This document shows, piece by piece, positions 2,838 through 18,912 of a stretch of DNA of 64,000 nt (positions are counted from its first letter, which is position 1; each line of letters begins with the position of its first letter). The DNA is from Chloracidobacterium sp. (GTDB taxonomy: Bacteria; Acidobacteriota; Blastocatellia; Pyrinomonadales; Pyrinomonadaceae): contig JAYVER010000226.1 of NCBI GenBank assembly GCA_043748725.1, positions 8,922 through 72,921 of the forward strand, given 5' to 3'. Under the pieces are notes generated by a model. That model saw only the letters and a program-made list of their open reading frames with translations, did not search any database and was not told the DNA's origin. The position numbers and the translations under genes are program-made.

Positions 2838-4337
2838 ATGTTCGAATCGTTATCCGATAAACTCAAGAAAACGCTGAAAAATCTGCGTGGCCAGGGGAAA
2901 TTGACCGCTGAGCACGTTGATGTTGCTCTTCGCGAGATACGGATGGCGCTGCTTGAGGCGGATGTTAACTACAAAGTCGCTAAAGATTTTGTCGAATCGG
3001 TCCGAGTCAAGGCTGAGGGCGAAGAGGTCTGGAACGGGCTGAAACCGCACGAACAGGTCGTTAAGATCGTCTATGACGAACTTGCCGAGTTAATGGGCGG
3101 CACGTCGTCGCGGCTCGTTTTTACCAAGCAAACGCCGAACGTCGTGATGATCGTCGGTTTACAGGGTTCGGGTAAGACGACTTCGACGGGCAAGATCTCG
3201 CGTTGGCTCGCAGATAATCAGGAGCGGAAACCATTGTTGGTTTCGGTTGACGTTTATCGGCCGGCAGCGCGCGAACAGTTAAAGGTTGTCGCAAATGCCG
3301 TCAACATTGCGGTTTACGAGGCGAAAGAGTCAAACGACCCGATGACGATCGTCCGTGGTGCGGTCAAGCACGCGGTCGAATTTGGCTTTGACACGCTGAT
3401 GATCGACACGGCCGGGCGTCTCCATATCGACGACGATCTAATGGTCGAGCTCGAGCAGATCAAGGCCGAGACAAAGCCTGTCGAGGTTTTGTTTGTCGCC
3501 GACGCGATGACCGGGCAAGATGCGGTTCGCTCGGCTGAAGTTTTTCACGAGCGTGTCGGCATCACCGGCGTTGTCCTTACCAAAATGGACGGCGATGCAC
3601 GCGGCGGTGCGGCGTTGTCGATCAAGCAGGTCATTGGCCAGCCGGTCAAGTTTGTCGGCGTCGGCGAAAAATACGACGCCATCGAGCCTTTTTATCCCGA
3701 TCGTATCGCCCAGCGAATTCTCGGAATGGGCGATGTCCTGAGCCTGATCGAGGAAGTTCAAGGCAAAATCAGCGAGGACGAAGCCCAGGCGCAATTGCTG
3801 AAAATGACGCGTAACCAGTTTACGCTTGAGGATTTTCGTAATCAGCTTGGCCAGTTCAAAAAACTCGGCTCAATGTCCAAATTGATGAAGATGCTGCCCG
3901 AGCAGATGACCGGCGGCATGCAGATCACGGACGAGCAATCGGCCGTCGTGGACCATCAGATGAAACGCACCGAGGCGATCATCGATTCGATGACGCGGCT
4001 CGAACGCAACGAATATAAGGTTATCGACGCCAGCCGCAAAACGCGTATCGCCGGCGGTTCGGGCTCGACGATAGCTGAGGTCAATCAACTGCTTCGCCAA
4101 TACGAGCAGATGCGCAAAATGATGGCGCAGATGAATCGCGGCGGCATGTTTGGCGGCATGGCCAGGAAAATGGCCGGTGGATTGGCAGGCGGCCTCGGCA
4201 ATATGTTAGGCGGCGGCAACGGAATTGGCGGTCTCGGCGGAATGCTTGGCAGCGGCGCGGATATGGACGACGACGATTCAAACGGATCGGCGACACGAAA
4301 CATTAGGAAGAAGAAGCGACATAAGAAAAAGAGATGA
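2838..4337 (+). CDS. ffh: signal recognition particle protein Ffh
   Basis: NG domain motifs are present (GLQGSGKTTS, DTAGR, TKMDGDARGG), followed by an M domain. The C-terminal tail is unusually long, Gly/Met-rich and polybasic. Confidence 0.97.
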   Translation: MFESLSDKLKKTLKNLRGQGKLTAEHVDVALREIRMALLEADVNYKVAKDFVESVRVKAEGEEVWNGLKPHEQVVKIVYDELAELMGGTSSRLVFTKQTPNVVMIVGLQGSGKTTSTGKISRWLADNQERKPLLVSVDVYRPAAREQLKVVANAVNIAVYEAKESNDPMTIVRGAVKHAVEFGFDTLMIDTAGRLHIDDDLMVELEQIKAETKPVEVLFVADAMTGQDAVRSAEVFHERVGITGVVLTKMDGDARGGAALSIKQVIGQPVKFVGVGEKYDAIEPFYPDRIAQRILGMGDVLSLIEEVQGKISEDEAQAQLLKMTRNQFTLEDFRNQLGQFKKLGSMSKLMKMLPEQMTGGMQITDEQSAVVDHQMKRTEAIIDSMTRLERNEYKVIDASRKTRIAGGSGSTIAEVNQLLRQYEQMRKMMAQMNRGGMFGGMARKMAGGLAGGLGNMLGGGNGIGGLGGMLGSGADMDDDDSNGSATRNIRKKKRHKKKR

Positions 4338-6096: not shown

Positions 6097-6609
6097 ATGG
6101 AAGAGCTTGTTGCCATCGCCAGGATCGTAAAGCCGCGCGGGCTGCGTGGTGAGTTGTTCGCCGAGCTATTGACGGATTTTCCTAAGCGTTTTGAGGATTT
6201 GGAAACGGTAACTGCGGTTATGCCGGATGAGAGCCGCTTTGAGTTGAAAATTGAAGAGCATTGGTTTCAAAGCGGCCGAATAGTTTTGAAATTTGCAGGT
6301 TATGACTCGATAGAGTTAGGCGAAACGCTACGAAACGCGGAAATATGTATCCCGCAATCTGCAGCTGTTGAGCTTGACGCGGACGAGTATTTCGACTGGG
6401 AATTGGTCGGCTGCAAGGTCGAAACCATCGAGGGGAAAACTGTCGGCACGGTTCGGGAACTAATGCGGACGGGCGGAACGGAGATTTTGGTAATTGACGG
6501 CCAAGAGAAAGAAACTTTAATACCATTTGCCGCCGCGATCTGCCCCAAAGTGGATATTGAGAACAAGCTGATCCAGATTGATCCACCTAAAGGACTGTTA
6601 GACTTTTAG
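6097..6609 (+). CDS. rimM: 16S rRNA processing protein RimM
   Basis: The start is RimM-like ([14 protein letters not shown]), a PRC-barrel C-terminus is present, and synteny fits. Confidence 0.93.
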
Positions 6610-14387: not shown

Positions 14388-14672
14388 ATGGAACGCAAAA
14401 TTCTCGATAGCTGCGAATTAGCCGACGCGGTCAAAGCCCTCGACGGTTGGTCGGCTGAGGCCAAGATATTAAAAAAACGATTCACTTTCGCAAACTTTGC
14501 CGAAAGTCTCGAATTTGTTAACCGTGTCGGCGCGCTTGCCGAGGCAGCAGACCACCACCCCGACATCACATTTGGCTGGGGCTATGCTGAACTCGCCCTA
14601 AAGACCCACGACCGCGGCGGAATAACGGATGTGGATATTGCTCTAGCTGGTAAGATCGATAAATTGCGCTAA
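14388..14672 (+). CDS. 4a-hydroxytetrahydrobiopterin (pterin-4-alpha-carbinolamine) dehydratase
   Basis: FANFAESLEFVNRVGALAEAADHHPD motif. Confidence 0.92.
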   Translation: MERKILDSCELADAVKALDGWSAEAKILKKRFTFANFAESLEFVNRVGALAEAADHHPDITFGWGYAELALKTHDRGGITDVDIALAGKIDKLR

Positions 14673-15178
14673 CTGTGACTCGATACCAAGCCGGAGTGTT
14701 TTAGGGTCTCTATTGGCAAATATAGGTGATTTTTATCATCGTTTAGCGGCACGAAAGCATATTTCAGATAAAATTGTCGGGCACTCTCAGTAAGGGCATA
14801 AAGTTCGACGGCGTAAATCCCAAGTTGTCCCGAAAGCTCGACTATTCGTTCCAAAGCGTCGATCAGCAGGAGCTCTCCCAAACGTTGGCCTTGCATTATT
14901 TTGTCAACCCCCAGCCTTCCGATATGAACGGTCGGAACTGGGTATCGAGGCAGCTTTTTCGGAATAATTTCAAACGATATGCTTCCGGATGACAAAGTGT
15001 AATATCCGCAAACATTTGTTTGTTCGGGCAAAACTGCGACAAAGGTTTTTCCTAAACCTATATCCATGTTTTGTCTCGCATACTGCTTGAGAAACTGATT
15101 CAGCGAGTATTCGCCGCAGTCAAAGGCTTCACGCTTATGCCTTTTTTCGAGCGGTTCGATGCGAAAATCGAGTTTCAT
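14669..15178 (-). CDS. GNAT-type toxin (TacT/AtaT-like) of a type II TA pair
   Basis: FDCGEYSLNQFL...IGRLGVDKIMQGQRLGELLL...FYLKYAFVP. It overlaps the upstream DUF1778 gene by 4 bp. Confidence 0.85.
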   Translation of the reverse strand: MKLDFRIEPLEKRHKREAFDCGEYSLNQFLKQYARQNMDIGLGKTFVAVLPEQTNVCGYYTLSSGSISFEIIPKKLPRYPVPTVHIGRLGVDKIMQGQRLGELLLIDALERIVELSGQLGIYAVELYALTESARQFYLKYAFVPLNDDKNHLYLPIETLKHSGLVSSHS

Positions 15179-15465
15179 TTAATTACGCGTTTACGATACT
15201 CCTTAACGGCGGCAAGCAGTGCCTCATTTGGTTCGGGTGGATTTTCCAGCATATCTAGAAAAATATCGCGGTCACGATCGGACAGGATGCGATTGTGATG
15301 CTTTTCCAAAACCTCATCGGCGGTATTGGCAAGAGCATTTATCGCAAAATCCGTGACTGTCAAACCAGACACAATAGCGGCCTTTTCGATCCGCTCCTTT
15401 ATGTCAGCCGGAAGCCGGAAATTAAACCGGGCAACTCCGTTTAATGTATTTTCGGCAACACTCAT
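15175..15465 (-). CDS. DUF1778 (TacA-like, RHH) antitoxin
   Basis: FNFRLPADIKERIEKAAIVSGLTVTDFAINAL... Confidence 0.85.
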   Translation of the reverse strand: MSVAENTLNGVARFNFRLPADIKERIEKAAIVSGLTVTDFAINALANTADEVLEKHHNRILSDRDRDIFLDMLENPPEPNEALLAAVKEYRKRVIK

Positions 15466-15513: not shown

Positions 15514-15621
15514 CGCAAGATTAACGACTGTATCTAATCTTTGCTTACCGTCCATGTTTCCGTTAAAATCGACCATTTAGTTATACAGTCTAATTTTCAC
15601 AGAGGATATTAAGAAAAAGTT

Positions 15622-17091
15622 ATGTCGAATGTACCTATTACGGTCGCCCATGGCGACGGCATCGGGCCGGAGATCATGGAGGCGACGCTGCATATTTTGA
15701 AGGCTGCCGGAGCGCGGATCGATATCGAGACGATTGAGATCGGCGAAAAGGTCTATTTATCGGGTAATTCCGCCGGGATCGCACCCGAATCATGGGACTG
15801 CCTCAGGCGGACGAAAGTCTTCCTCAAGGCACCGATCACGACTCCTCAAGGTGGCGGTTTCAAGTCGCTGAATGTTACCGTCCGCAAGACGCTCGGAATG
15901 TATGCAAATATCCGCCCGTGCGTATCGTATCACCCGTTTGTTGAGACGAAACACCCGGTGATGGATCTCGTCATCGTCCGCGAAAACGAAGAAGATACTT
16001 ACGCCGGCATCGAATATCGCCAAACCGATATGGTCGAGCAGTGCCTTAAGATCATTACGCGTCCCGGCTCGGAAAAGATCGTCCGATACGCCTTTGAATA
16101 CGCAACCCTAAACAATCGCAAAAAGATCACCTGCTTTATAAAAGACAACATCATGAAGCAGACTGACGGCCTGTTTCACCGTGTTTTTGATGAGATCGCG
16201 GCTGAATATCCGGCGATCGAGGCTGACCATTGGATCGTTGATATTGGGGCGGCCAAGATGGCCGACACTCCAGAGAATTTTGATGTGATCGTGATGCCAA
16301 ACCTATATGGTGACATCCTGTCGGACGTTGCGGCACAGATCGCCGGTTCGGTCGGGTTGGCCGGTTCGGCAAATATAGGCGAAAATATTTCGATGTTCGA
16401 GGCGATACACGGTTCGGCTCCGCGTCGTGCCGGACAAAACCTCGCCAATCCGTCTGGGCTGTTTTTGGGGGCGATCATGATGCTCGTGCATATCAATCAG
16501 CCCGACGTGGCGGAGCTCGCTCATAACGCATGGCTGCGGGCCATTGAGGACGGCGTCCACACTTACGATATTTTTAAGGAAGGCGTTTCCAAAGAAAAGG
16601 TCGGCACTAAGGAATTTGCCCAGGCCGTAGTCGATCGCATCGGACAAAAGCCTGAGACGCTCAAAGCGGTCAAGTATAAAAACGTCGAAGAGATCGCGGC
16701 CGCTGACAGAAAGCCGATCTATTCGATCCGCGAACCGCAAAAGAAAGACCTCGTCGGCGTAGATGTGTTTATCAATTGGTGGAACGGTAATTTTTACGGT
16801 GCCGGCAACGTGATCGGCGCCGAGATCGAAAAGCTCAGTTGCGAAGGCCTAAAGCTCATAATGGTTTCAAATCGCGGAACAAAAGTTTACCCGAAAGGAA
16901 ATGCCGATACTTTCTGTGTTGATCACTGGCGATGCCGCTTTATTGCCGAAAACCAGGGCGAAACTATCTCGCATCAGCAGGTGATCGATCTGCTCGGCAG
17001 ATTTGATGCTGCCGGATTCGATTTCATCAAAACAGAGCATCTCTATAATTTTGATGGCCAGCCCGGTTATTCGCTCGGACAGGGTCAATAA
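15622..17091 (+). CDS. icd: isocitrate dehydrogenase (NADP-type, long form)
   Basis: ITVAHGDGIGPEIM...NIRPC...NLYGDILSD family motifs. Confidence 0.9.
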   Translation: MSNVPITVAHGDGIGPEIMEATLHILKAAGARIDIETIEIGEKVYLSGNSAGIAPESWDCLRRTKVFLKAPITTPQGGGFKSLNVTVRKTLGMYANIRPCVSYHPFVETKHPVMDLVIVRENEEDTYAGIEYRQTDMVEQCLKIITRPGSEKIVRYAFEYATLNNRKKITCFIKDNIMKQTDGLFHRVFDEIAAEYPAIEADHWIVDIGAAKMADTPENFDVIVMPNLYGDILSDVAAQIAGSVGLAGSANIGENISMFEAIHGSAPRRAGQNLANPSGLFLGAIMMLVHINQPDVAELAHNAWLRAIEDGVHTYDIFKEGVSKEKVGTKEFAQAVVDRIGQKPETLKAVKYKNVEEIAAADRKPIYSIREPQKKDLVGVDVFINWWNGNFYGAGNVIGAEIEKLSCEGLKLIMVSNRGTKVYPKGNADTFCVDHWRCRFIAENQGETISHQQVIDLLGRFDAAGFDFIKTEHLYNFDGQPGYSLGQGQ

Positions 17092-17100
17092 GTAATTATT

Positions 17101-17937
17101 GTGTTTGGCGAAAGAAAACTTGTGATCGCTACAAAACACGAAAAGGAACGCGTGATCGCGCCCATACTCGAGTCAGAGTTGGGCGTGATCTGCTTTGTAC
17201 CCGACAATTTTGACTCCGATGCTTTCGGAACGTTTTCGGGCGAAGTTGAGCGAAAATTGGATCCAGTAGAAACAGCGAAAAGAAAATGCCGTCTCGCGAT
17301 GGAGTTGAACAGCTGCGATTTGGGCGTTGCAAGCGAAGGCTCGTTTGGCCCGCACCCGTCAAACTTTTTTGCTAGTGCCGACGACGAAATCTTGGTCTTT
17401 ATCGATACCGCGAATGATTTGGAAATTATTGCAAGAGAATTGACCTTTGAGACAAACTTTGACGGTAGGGCGGTCGCCAATATGAGTGAGTTACTGGAAT
17501 TTGCCGAAGCTGCAAAGTTCCCATCGCACGGTTTGATCTTGCGCCCTGCGAAAGGCGTCAACGAACAGATAATTAAGAGCATCATTGATCGGGCGGAATT
17601 AGAAGCAGGCTATACCAAGCTGTTCGAAACCTACGGCTCGGCATATGTCGAAACGGATATGAGGGCAATGTTTAACCCGACGCGACTGAAAGTGATCGGT
17701 GATGCGGCTGTAAAATTGGCGGCTAGGGTTAAGTCATTGTGCCCGAAATGTGCCACGCATGGGTTTGGAGTAGTTGAAATGCGGCCGGGCCTGCGTTGCA
17801 GTATGTGCGGTGCCCCAACAGACTCAGCTTTGAGCCTCGTCTCTCGGTGTAAACGGTGTGGCTTTGAAGCGGACGAAATGTATCCGAACGGAAACACGCT
17901 CGAAGACCCGAGATTCTGCGGCATCTGCAATCCGTAG
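17101..17937 (+). CDS. uncharacterised protein with C-terminal Cys4 zinc-ribbon pairs (possibly the DUF6671 family; not verified)
   Basis: IATKHEKERVIAP...ASEGSFGPHP in the N-terminal domain. The C-terminus carries CPKC..CSMCG..CKRCG..CGIC. The gene starts 9 nt after the icd stop. Confidence 0.6.
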   Translation: MFGERKLVIATKHEKERVIAPILESELGVICFVPDNFDSDAFGTFSGEVERKLDPVETAKRKCRLAMELNSCDLGVASEGSFGPHPSNFFASADDEILVFIDTANDLEIIARELTFETNFDGRAVANMSELLEFAEAAKFPSHGLILRPAKGVNEQIIKSIIDRAELEAGYTKLFETYGSAYVETDMRAMFNPTRLKVIGDAAVKLAARVKSLCPKCATHGFGVVEMRPGLRCSMCGAPTDSALSLVSRCKRCGFEADEMYPNGNTLEDPRFCGICNP

Positions 17938-18062
17938 GTGGGCAGTGTTTTTAGACATATATTGCTCAGTCCGAGCTGAAAAATAATTAGTTTCAAAATC
18001 GAGATAACGGTCTGCAACGGCGTCCGCAAGAAATTTGCCAACTGGTAGAGATAAAGCGAAGG

Positions 18063-18090
18063 ATGAAGTTTCGGCTTCATCTTTTTTAAT
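18063..18090 (+). terminator. intrinsic terminator-like hairpin GATGAAG-tttcgg-CTTCATC followed by a T-run
   Basis: Read directly. A degenerate copy of the same 21-mer lies at 18656-18676. Confidence 0.6.
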
Positions 18091-18174
18091 TTTACAGGCC
18101 GATAATTGTGATACCTTATTTCCAACCTGTTTCGCGCAACCGTGAATTTCGCAATTGATTAAAAATAACCCGTT

Positions 18175-18453
18175 ATGAATAAAACAGAAACCGTAAATCT
18201 GATTAAAGGAACTTTCGAGCCGGAGGACGCTAAAGAACTTCTTCTCCAATTATTAAATAGCAAAATAGACTTTCATAGTCGGAGAAACTGGAGTTCCCAA
18301 GAACGATTTGGAAAACCAGATTTGGTTTCCAAACAAAAACTGGAATATCTCGAGGAAGCCCGAAAAAATATACAGACGTTTCTGACAGAGGCGATTAATC
18401 AAAAAAAATCCGTAACTATAAATTCATTAATAGAATTGAAAATCGAAGAATGA
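18175..18453 (+). CDS. hypothetical protein (92 aa)
   Basis: ORF in an AT-rich segment; no family was recognised. Confidence 0.4.
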   Translation: MNKTETVNLIKGTFEPEDAKELLLQLLNSKIDFHSRRNWSSQERFGKPDLVSKQKLEYLEEARKNIQTFLTEAINQKKSVTINSLIELKIEE

Positions 18454-18492
18454 GATTACAGTAAACCGCGCGAAAAGAAGTACGCTGGCAAA

Positions 18493-18615
18493 TGAACCGA
18501 TGTCACTCACAAACGGATAATCTCGCTGTTCGAACGCCTCTACAACGGAGGCCTCGATGTAATCAAGACCGAAAACCTCTACAACTTCGACAACGTTAAG
18601 GGCTACTCTACGTAA
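18493..18615 (+). pseudogene. displaced 3'-terminal fragment of an isocitrate dehydrogenase gene
   Basis: TDVTHKRIISLFERLYNGGLDVIKTENLYNFDNVKGYST* aligns with the intact icd C-terminus ETISHQQVIDLLGRFDAAGFDFIKTEHLYNFDGQPGYSLGQGQ*. Confidence 0.75.
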
Positions 18616-18648
18616 GTCAGAACCGCCAGCATGAGTGGGCGGGTAATC
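18616..18648 (+). repeat. GTCAGAACC-headed dispersed repeat copy
   Basis: gtcagaaccgccagcatgagtgggcgggtaatc lies immediately after the remnant's stop codon. Confidence 0.6.
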
Positions 18649-18912
18649 TCAATAAGAAGGATGAAGTTTCGGCTTCGGTTTTTTACTAAAATGTAATATT
18701 TTAGTGTACACATCAAAAGTACTCATGTCTGTGAGTTATGTACAACTTACTTGGCGGCAATCGAAAACAATGAACTATCAAATAAGAAAATTAGAGGTTG
18801 TTACGGAAGACTCTTTTTAGCTTCTATCCATACGTTGACCGTTGTCAATAAAATTCGGTTGAACTCTTTGTTAGTTTTTTTTCGTGGGGGACTGGCGGAT
18901 CGATGAGATAGG

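Follow-up and report, generated by a model that had tools for sequence, protein, structure and literature searches.

A duplicated gene end behind a housekeeping gene raises the question of whether a mobile element has supplied a new terminus or whether a larger exchange has taken place at the site. The question is posed here by the isocitrate dehydrogenase (IDH) gene icd in a stretch of 64,000 nucleotides (the window, 51% GC) from G000, a metagenome-assembled genome (MAG) of 3.72 Mb that belongs to a genus of Pyrinomonadaceae (Acidobacteriota). An intact icd (15622-17091, plus strand) is followed by two open reading frames (ORFs) and by a second, diverged icd 3' end (18484-18615, plus strand). 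The sequence-only reading of the window had interpreted this arrangement as a heavily reduced, icd-targeting island comparable to e14 and phage 21, which integrate into the 3' end of icd in Escherichia coli; in e14 an integrase exchanges the final 163 bp (Hill et al. 1989, as summarised in PMC6379469). The second icd end proved to be real. The island was not upheld, as the comparisons described below point to replacement of a whole gene, with no integrase, no core and intervening ORFs that appear to be partners of icd. We consider it likely that 18454-18615 is the dead 3' end of a B-type icd (icdB), which was displaced in place by a whole incoming A-type icd operon.

The intact icd and the second 3' end

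The second 3' end comprises about 44 codons. It contains an in-frame TGA at 18493-18495, the upstream stop codon that had been noticed before, and ends with a stop codon at 18613-18615; the reading frame between them (18496-18615) encodes TDVTHKRIISLFERLYNGGLDVIKTENLYNFDNVKGYST followed by the stop. In a single BLASTP comparison the segment matched residues 449-484 of the intact protein with 18/36 identities (50%, E=1e-11). At the nucleotide level the two ends were 52% identical (66/127 aligned bases), and the longest exact word common to both was 9 nt and out of register. A third copy of the icd end was not found in the G000 genome.

The genus consists of uncultured acidobacteria from soil and glacier streams. 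Among its 191 species genomes (labelled G; further loci are labelled L), 114 encoded an icd with the C-terminal domain. Our own tally from the table of these 114 genes gave A-type genes in about 41 genomes (489 aa, ending in …GYSLGQGQ), B-type genes in about 52 (484-486 aa, ending in …LDVIKTENLYNFDGxKGYSA) and a divergent group in about 13. Identity between A- and B-type genes is about 80%, and both types are found in the same slot. Phylogenetic analysis of icd indicated that the B-type genes are monophyletic (SH-aLRT 100; 100/100 on columns 1-430) and nested within a paraphyletic A-type. The icd ends of the outgroup read LGQGQ or LGQGE.

The intact gene of the window encodes 489 aa with the A-type end …GYSLGQGQ. 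It contains the Pfam domains Iso_dh and Isocitrate_DH_C_bact and scored above the cut-offs of the NCBIfam equivalogs for NADP-IDH (NF006673, 782 bits, cut-off 509). In the icd tree it clustered together with G119 and G004 in an A-type clade rich in scars of displaced genes, and the B clade excluded it both with the full alignment and with columns 1-430. Twelve alignment columns were diagnostic for the B-type, with a state that every B-type gene shares and no other A-type gene shows, and 11 of them fall at residues 81-432. The window icd displayed the A state at 12/12 columns, including 11/11 upstream of the duplicated segment. The same 12/12 A state was observed in all 15 scar-bearing icd genes examined.

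Alignment of both 3' ends with the icd genes of relatives, a check that the sequence-only reading had proposed, placed the intact gene with the A-type and the second end nearest to the B-type. The amino acid identity of the second end was 64-72% to B-type ends versus 50% to the icd end of its own genome. It displays the B-diagnostic K481 and ends in GYS(T) without LGQGQ, and its best full-length nucleotide matches were all B-type (e.g. G006, 78% over 93 nt). These comparisons indicate that the second end is a B-type remnant, the dead 3' end of an older resident icd, and that the intact icd is the incoming gene. With an intact gene that is A-type over its full length and a remnant that is B-type, a whole icd operon, and not just a terminus, seems to have replaced the resident. 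The earlier view therefore held in one part, namely that the downstream copy is the displaced original end and that the functional end came with incoming DNA, and failed in the other, as an element swapping only the terminus is contradicted by the A state at 11/11 columns.

A site-specific element of the e14 or phage 21 kind, which integrated with a substitute icd 3' end and later lost the integrase together with most other genes, would produce the same geometry of functional end, intervening genes and displaced end. An exact 21-bp direct repeat and a low-GC ORF (orf92) between the two ends would also agree with it. However, the intact icd is A-type from residue 81 to its end and no hybrid, and the two coding copies, at 52% nucleotide identity, share no in-register core. 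When all sizeable ORFs between 7.7 and 24.9 kb of the window, about 8 kb on each side, were scanned with Pfam, no integrase, recombinase or transposase was detected, in agreement with the earlier remark that the intervening DNA lacks an integrase, and the genome contains no other icd-end copy. As shown below, the 21-bp repeat is part of an icd terminator that is also present after unduplicated icd genes, the same cassette replaces a non-homologous monomeric IDH in relatives, and the intervening ORFs are conserved companions of icd. This explanation is largely refuted already, and we assign it next to no probability.

Occupants and scars of the slot in relatives

In more than 40 loci the IDH gene lies in a common frame, which reads orf155, pterin-4a-carbinolamine dehydratase, (orf360), IDH, (kinase), purE and purK. 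The optional genes encode a secreted protein of 350-370 aa before the IDH and a Ser/Thr kinase before purE-purK. The IDH position is occupied by icdA, by icdB or by a monomeric IDH; we take PF00180 to represent the dimeric NADP-IDH and PF03971 the monomeric IDH. Many of the genus genomes outside the 114 encode the latter instead; in a sample of 31 genomes it was identified in 11, most of which lack the 489-aa icd. Two intact icd copies were not present in any of the 114 icd-bearing genomes. In G024, a full monomeric IDH and a divergent icd of 483 aa are located at separate places (contigs C16 and C91), a possible additive state, unlike the replacements elsewhere.

The ORF nearest to the remnant in the window, orf92 (18175-18453, plus strand, 92 codons), is a small gene recognised as a partner of A-type icd by its conservation next to it. 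Homologues of orf92 were detected in 10 of the 191 genus genomes, each directly 3' of an A-type icd. In nine of these 10 genomes a piece of another IDH gene lies about 20-150 bp after orf92; in G115 no IDH remnant was detected after the A-type icd and orf92. The piece is an icdB 3' remnant in G044 (120 codons), G152 (105 codons), G020, G119 and G000, and an N-terminal fragment of a monomeric IDH on the opposite strand in G009, G139, G142 and G150. A C-terminal fragment of the monomeric IDH is located upstream of icdA in G009 and G139, and a short icdB remnant lies beyond the monomeric-IDH fragment in G009 and G142. Both scar patterns were also found in further MAGs (L105, L108, L113 and L165), including two complete chromosomes. 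Other arrangements were an intact monomeric IDH with an icdB remnant behind it (G095 and G146), and icdA, terminator and icdB remnant without orf92 (G014 and G114).

Altogether, physical scars of displaced genes were identified in about 20 genomes. B-type remnants are present in G000, G119, G014, G114, G044, G152, G020, G009, G142, G095, G146, G144, L105, L113 and L165, and monomeric-IDH fragments in G009, G139, G142, G150, L108 and L165. The scars show replacements in three directions: from the B-type icd to the monomeric IDH, from the B-type icd to the A-type icd with orf92, and from the monomeric IDH to the A-type icd with orf92. Because the monomeric IDH is not homologous to icd, an entire icd gene must have arrived with the cassette that lies between its ends.

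The segment 18451-18483, straight after the orf92 stop, is homologous to the junction of orf92 and remnant in L113, L079 and G044. The homology reaching back to about 18466, which had been suspected from the sequence, is therefore real. By comparison with these three loci, 18454-18483 (plus strand) represents the junction-proximal piece of the displaced gene, so that the window copy begins with the common orf92/icdB junction, lacks about 80 codons internally and resumes with the final 45 or so codons of icdB. In L113 an open frame of about 125 codons runs from icdB residue ~350 to the stop and covers the entire C-terminal domain. This copy (L113 6265-6672) is the longest B-type remnant; it is uninterrupted and shares 82% identity with an intact B-type gene; the orf92 ahead of it carries a frameshift. 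The same junction, at which the orf92 stop meets icdB residue ~350, was found in the orf92-linked B scars of L113, L079, G044 and G000, which points to a single founding event. Judging from this common junction, the orf92-linked B scars probably descend from one illegitimate join, followed by spread and erosion. The left junction of the monomeric-IDH scars is also shared, with residues ~555-602 adjoining icdA.

Some loci displayed further rearrangements. In L108, direct copies of the monomeric-IDH 3' end (3758-4303 and 6291-6425; 85.5% over 138 bp) flank icdA-orf92, and the right copy is fused to an N-terminal fragment of the monomeric IDH (residues 13-207). In L165 (3372-4201 and 7315-7887), a complete Pyrinomonadaceae chromosome, IS5-like ORFs split the monomeric-IDH C-terminal fragment upstream of icdA, and an IS3-type rve fragment is located right of the N-terminal fragment. 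Dead IDH DNA thus seems to collect insertion sequences (IS). We considered IS elements as movers of the cassette and rejected them; those of L165 belong to different families and are missing from the other loci, and are therefore probably later insertions. In L086 (G144; 3584-3911), a purE fragment (residues 22-72) lies directly 5' of the icdB remnant, about 2 kb before a complete purE. No intact icd was detected in G144, and its slot is another rearranged version.

The occupants of the slot did not follow the relationships of the genomes. The icd tree was incongruent with both the tree of the flanking genes and the Ffh tree, with the caveat that only one marker used, Ffh, is roughly unlinked. 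In the Ffh tree, as in that of the four flanking genes, several well-supported sister genomes differed in their occupants; the support values given here are from the Ffh tree. G095 (monomeric IDH and B remnant) is the sister of G152 (A-type icd with orf92 and B remnant; support 100/99), G044 (A-type icd with orf92 and B remnant) of G185 (intact B-type; 96/84), and G017 (intact B-type) of G114 and G130 (A-type with or without remnant; 100/99). The same was observed for G007 (monomeric IDH) and G006 (B-type; 100/99), and for G047 (A-type) and G046 (monomeric IDH; 99/91). G146, with an intact monomeric IDH, fell within the clade of G009, G142 and G150 in the Ffh tree and in the tree of four flanking genes. 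When the occupant was scored on 44 tips of the Ffh tree and compared with shuffled labels, 23 changes were required versus a shuffled mean of 25. The closest match of the G114 remnant was icdB from its sister G017 (86% over 214 nt), as expected of the leftover of a resident gene.

Recent lateral movement was indicated by G020 and G152. Their cassettes are 93.8% identical over 1965 bp, versus 76% for purE and 73% for purK, and the identity is 95-100% from the early part of icd (roughly codons 20-70) to about 80 bp inside the remnant. As the identity of the cassette is far above that of the flanks, the composite appears to have moved laterally and recently, with one crossover inside the remnant. 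The G119 locus is collinear with the window across icdA, DUF6671, terminator, orf92 and remnant (78-79% nucleotide identity); of the two collinear remnants, that of G119 is the more decayed one. G004 corresponds to G119 minus 1.3 kb, with most of DUF6671, orf92 and the remnant gone and the first 32 DUF6671 codons kept. Likewise, G130 corresponds to G114 minus 410 bp holding the remnant. These pairs show that the scars erode by deletion.

The same data bear on an ancestral tandem duplication (icdA, terminator, (orf92), icdB, terminator) with differential loss, in which the remnant would be a decayed paralogue. The homology of the two terminators and the similarity of the A- and B-types, about 80% identical in the same slot, would be in accordance with such an origin. 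It is opposed by the lack of any genome with two intact copies (0/114) and by the position of the B-type, which is nested inside the diversity of the A-type with no basal split. Nor does it agree with the lateral movement of the G020/G152 cassette (94% identity versus 73-76% in the flanks) or with sister species that carry an intact B-type in one case and an A-type with a B remnant in the other, and the monomeric-IDH scars cannot arise from an icd duplication. We regard a tandem duplication as very improbable.

Terminators, partner genes and neighbourhood

The 21-mer GAAGGATGAAGTTTCGGCTTC, found at 18059-18079 and 18656-18676, has no other copy in the assembly. As the sole long exact repeat here, it lies outside both coding copies of the icd end. 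Each copy lies in a putative terminator on the plus strand. Terminator copy 1 (18058-18091) has a 12-bp stem, a UUCG-type loop and a U-run, with a folding energy of -13.1 kcal/mol (z -3.6). Copy 2 (18655-18690), recognised by folding and by comparison with relatives, is degenerate (-7.0 kcal/mol, z -1.05). The earlier description of a direct repeat with one good and one degenerate terminator was thus accurate. A hairpin GGATGAAGTTTCGGCTTCGTCC with a T-run is found about 20 bp past the A-type icd in G014, L105, L108, L111 and L079, and the same GGATGAAGTTTCGGCTTCGTCC hairpin lies 30-60 bp past an intact icdB (G002) or B remnants (G044, G119, L105, L113 and L165). Because it follows both A-type and B-type icd in relatives, the two window copies are two icd terminators, copy 1 being that of the incoming icd operon and copy 2 that of the resident icdB. 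The terminator is also present after unduplicated icd genes, and in G119 purE begins directly after the second terminator. With two genomic copies only and a conserved icd terminator elsewhere, the 21-mer was rejected as an att site or dispersed repeat.

A hairpin resembling repetitive extragenic palindromic (REP) elements, GTCAGAACCGCC…GGGCGGG, was predicted by folding directly after the remnant stop (18616-18648, plus strand). Its GTCAGAACCGCC head is also present right after the stop of the G152 remnant, and the hairpin therefore seems to be part of the native downstream region of the B-type icd. The remnant appears to be without function, except perhaps as the 3' untranslated end and weak terminator of orf92.

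The two 21-mer copies flank exactly orf92 and the remnant (597 bp), and one junction is common to all orf92-linked B remnants. Both observations would suit a mobile unit of orf92, icdB fragment and terminator that inserted at the terminator of a resident icdA, so that the remnant never was a resident gene. The distribution of these parts argues against this unit. The orf92 groups track the icdA clades, icd, terminator and orf92 occur without a remnant in other genera (L110 and L111), and icd-orf92 is an operon order in Bacteroidota. In addition, B remnants without orf92 lie beside a monomeric IDH (G095 and G146) or icdA (G014 and G114), G095, the sister of G152, keeps its own B remnant, and the segment of high identity between G020 and G152 takes in icdA. 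We hold an insertion of such a unit to be highly unlikely, and favour replacement of a resident icdB by the complete icdA operon.

The second intervening ORF (17101-17937, plus strand) encodes a DUF6671 protein of 278 aa with C-terminal CxxC pairs (Pfam PF20376, E=3e-87). It was collinear with DUF6671 of G119 at 78% nucleotide identity, and appears from this conservation to belong to the incoming operon in the lineage of the window. Both intervening ORFs had been described as AT-rich, which was correct for orf92 (34% GC) and incorrect for the DUF6671 gene, whose GC content (50%) is close to that of the window. Within the genus, DUF6671 is located between icd and orf92 in G000 and G119; this order, icd-DUF6671-orf92, is unlike the icd-orf92-DUF6671 found elsewhere.

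The orf92 family is rare and formed 15 clusters in a word-based search of 5.8 billion proteins. A separate pattern search detected 64 loci in Pyrinomonadales, Bacteroidota (Chitinophagales, Flavobacterium, Sphingobacteriales and Cytophagales) and one gammaproteobacterial MAG. Among the 53 loci outside Pyrinomonadales, icd was directly upstream in 34, DUF6671 directly downstream in 22 and the full triad present in 13. The conservation of the order icd-orf92-DUF6671 across phyla suggests that orf92 and DUF6671 are conserved partners of IDH and not cargo of an island; they are likely partners or regulators of IDHs with the C-terminal domain. Several Flavobacterium genomes encode the orf92-DUF6671 pair without icd. 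In three Bacteroidota loci (L123 4932-5015, L162 5740-5823 and L166 1933-2016), the icd stop is immediately followed by a short stretch matching orf92 residues 7-34, with a full orf92 behind it; the stretch may have arisen by partial duplication, or may be an additional small ORF between icd and orf92.

The AlphaFold2 model of orf92 (pLDDT 95) consists of a strand, two long helices and a strand. It had no neighbour in the PDB (best E 0.17), and orf92 matched no Pfam, NCBIfam or PADLOC family; the DUF6671 protein matched no NCBIfam or PADLOC family. A homing endonuclease or other nuclease was considered for orf92 and rejected, as no PDB neighbour had an E below 0.1 and no family matched. In the literature searched, no paper mentioned DUF6671 or the triad icd-orf92-DUF6671.

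These proteins could nevertheless be thought to make the cassette an active replacer that promotes itself, for example through cleavage or poisoning of the resident allele or through addiction. In favour of this, two unrelated IDH genes at one locus have received the cassette, orf92 lies at the junction in every orf92-bearing case, and the occupant is distributed almost at random over the Ffh tree (44 tips; 23 changes versus 25 on average after shuffling). Against such targeting, orf92 is modelled as a helical hairpin plus two strands and had neither a nuclease-like structural neighbour nor a match to defence or toxin families, the triad of Bacteroidota looks like a stable operon, and the scars of G014 and G114 lack orf92. 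One founding junction per resident type, with homologous spread, suffices to account for the scars. Active targeting by orf92 or DUF6671, or both, is in our judgement improbable. The broader proposal that icdA-orf92(-DUF6671) is a self-promoting cassette, steered either by its accessory proteins or by captured homology arms (the B remnant or the monomeric-IDH fragments), is a speculative one to which we give little weight. If it were true, a central gene of the tricarboxylic acid (TCA) cycle would behave as a mobile, competing allele across the genus.

Upstream of the intact icd, a probable promoter on the plus strand (15540-15569) comprises a -35 TTGCTT (15540-15545), an 18-nt spacer and a -10 TAAAAT (15564-15569). 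The motif TTGC…(A/T)TAAAATC is located 50-85 nt 5' of A-type and B-type icd alike in about 25 relatives, and the promoter role is proposed from this conservation alone; a strict consensus promoter scan did not list 15540-15569. Between the pterin dehydratase gene and the promoter, the window encodes a TacT-like GNAT toxin and a TacA antitoxin (14669-15465). In relatives this position is empty or occupied by a minus-strand gene for the secreted protein of 350-370 aa. On the other side, synteny with relatives stops right after terminator copy 2 (~18690). The place of purE-purK of the relatives is taken in the window by a run of minus-strand polysaccharide genes of about 29 kb (18913-47415), including O-antigen-ligase-like, WecA-like and glycosyltransferase genes. 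The purE-purK genes of G000 sit on a separate contig, C257, whose upstream part had no match at the loci of the relatives. The break may reflect an insertion, a rearrangement or a join made in assembly.

Probable replacement in place and its known counterparts

In the explanation we favour, the incoming unit would have comprised promoter, icdA, (DUF6671), terminator and orf92. The founding join would have been illegitimate, possibly facilitated by homology, with an anchor upstream of icd or in its 5' part. The promoter motif and the 5' part of icd are conserved between the A- and B-types and could anchor the left side; the right junction is non-homologous and shared. Later spread could have proceeded by ordinary homologous recombination, with icd or the upstream flank as the left arm, and with the B-type remnant and its terminator, homologous to any resident icdB, as the right arm. 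The composite would thus move between species, after which the scars would erode. As IDH activity would never be lost, each replacement may have been nearly neutral or mildly adaptive.

Several points weigh against this explanation. The founding event itself was not observed, and the mechanism is deduced from its products. In the approximately unbiased (AU) test on columns 1-430, a position of G000 beside the B clade was not rejected (delta lnL 23, p=0.15), and the hybrid question was for this reason decided on the diagnostic columns. Neither a 5' remnant of the displaced gene nor a monomeric-IDH remnant was found in the window; the missing displaced 5' end can be explained by the tacAT module, which occupies the site upstream of icd. 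The 138-bp duplication of L108 cannot be the product of a simple double crossover and suggests that the first step was additive or of Campbell type and that the redundant gene decayed afterwards. The species framework comprised four flanking genes and a single marker, Ffh, which itself lies only about 12 kb away from the locus. All of the genomes compared are MAGs, in which assembly errors are possible; the scar architecture recurs in independent assemblies, including the two complete chromosomes. In the sister pair G114 and G017 the flanks are only about 76% identical, too distant for microhomology to be read at the junction, and no closer pair of donor and recipient was found.

For core metabolic genes, replacing transfer is in most cases deduced from conflicting trees only. 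In this slot the leftovers of the losers are still readable, and three occupants can be ordered, namely the B-type icd, the monomeric IDH and the A-type icd with orf92, with replacement in many species. The locus thus offers a system to measure the rates of additive versus replacing transfer at a housekeeping gene, and allows testing whether swaps between dimeric and monomeric IDH track ecology, such as temperature. As a by-product, the triad icd-orf92-DUF6671 across Bacteroidota and Acidobacteriota flags two proteins as likely IDH partners. For annotation, a duplicated gene end alone is no sign of an integrase-type island.

The likeness to e14 and phage 21 lies in the succession of functional icd end, foreign genes and displaced pseudo-icd 3' end, the last of which measures 163 bp in E. 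coli and about 130-160 bp here. However, e14 employs an integrase and an att core and brings no more than the last ~50 codons; its copies hardly differ, and the gene is restored upon excision. At the present locus the entire gene is foreign, nucleotide identity between the copies is 52%, integrase and core are missing, and the intervening genes are operon partners of icd.

Dimeric and monomeric NADP-IDH are alternative isozymes in bacteria and have different temperature optima in Colwellia maris. As elsewhere, both are present in this genus and substitute for each other; the difference is that the swap takes place at one chromosomal site.

Orphan 3' ends are also known from effector-immunity modules of type VI secretion systems (T6SS) and from Rhs and contact-dependent inhibition (CDI) loci, for which sequential displacement through homology-facilitated illegitimate recombination was proposed (PMC5361080). 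There, too, the incoming module is anchored by upstream homology and the old 3' part is pushed downstream as an orphan, with no integrase involved, and arrays of leftovers build up over repeated rounds. In T6SS loci the orphans, being immunity genes, stay functional and selected, whereas the leftovers in the IDH slot are dead and decaying pieces of a TCA-cycle housekeeping gene.

The concept of non-orthologous gene displacement is reportedly due to Koonin and co-workers. Terms for xenologous or non-orthologous displacement in situ are attested (e.g. PMC1274311). The IDH slot shares with such cases a conserved position at which close relatives carry another lineage of the gene or an analogue, and a gene tree that disagrees with the species and flank trees. 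Gene displacement is usually inferred from trees alone, whereas physical scars order three successive occupants here. The event is thus of a known kind, replacing horizontal gene transfer or gene displacement in situ, and is an unusually well documented example of it.

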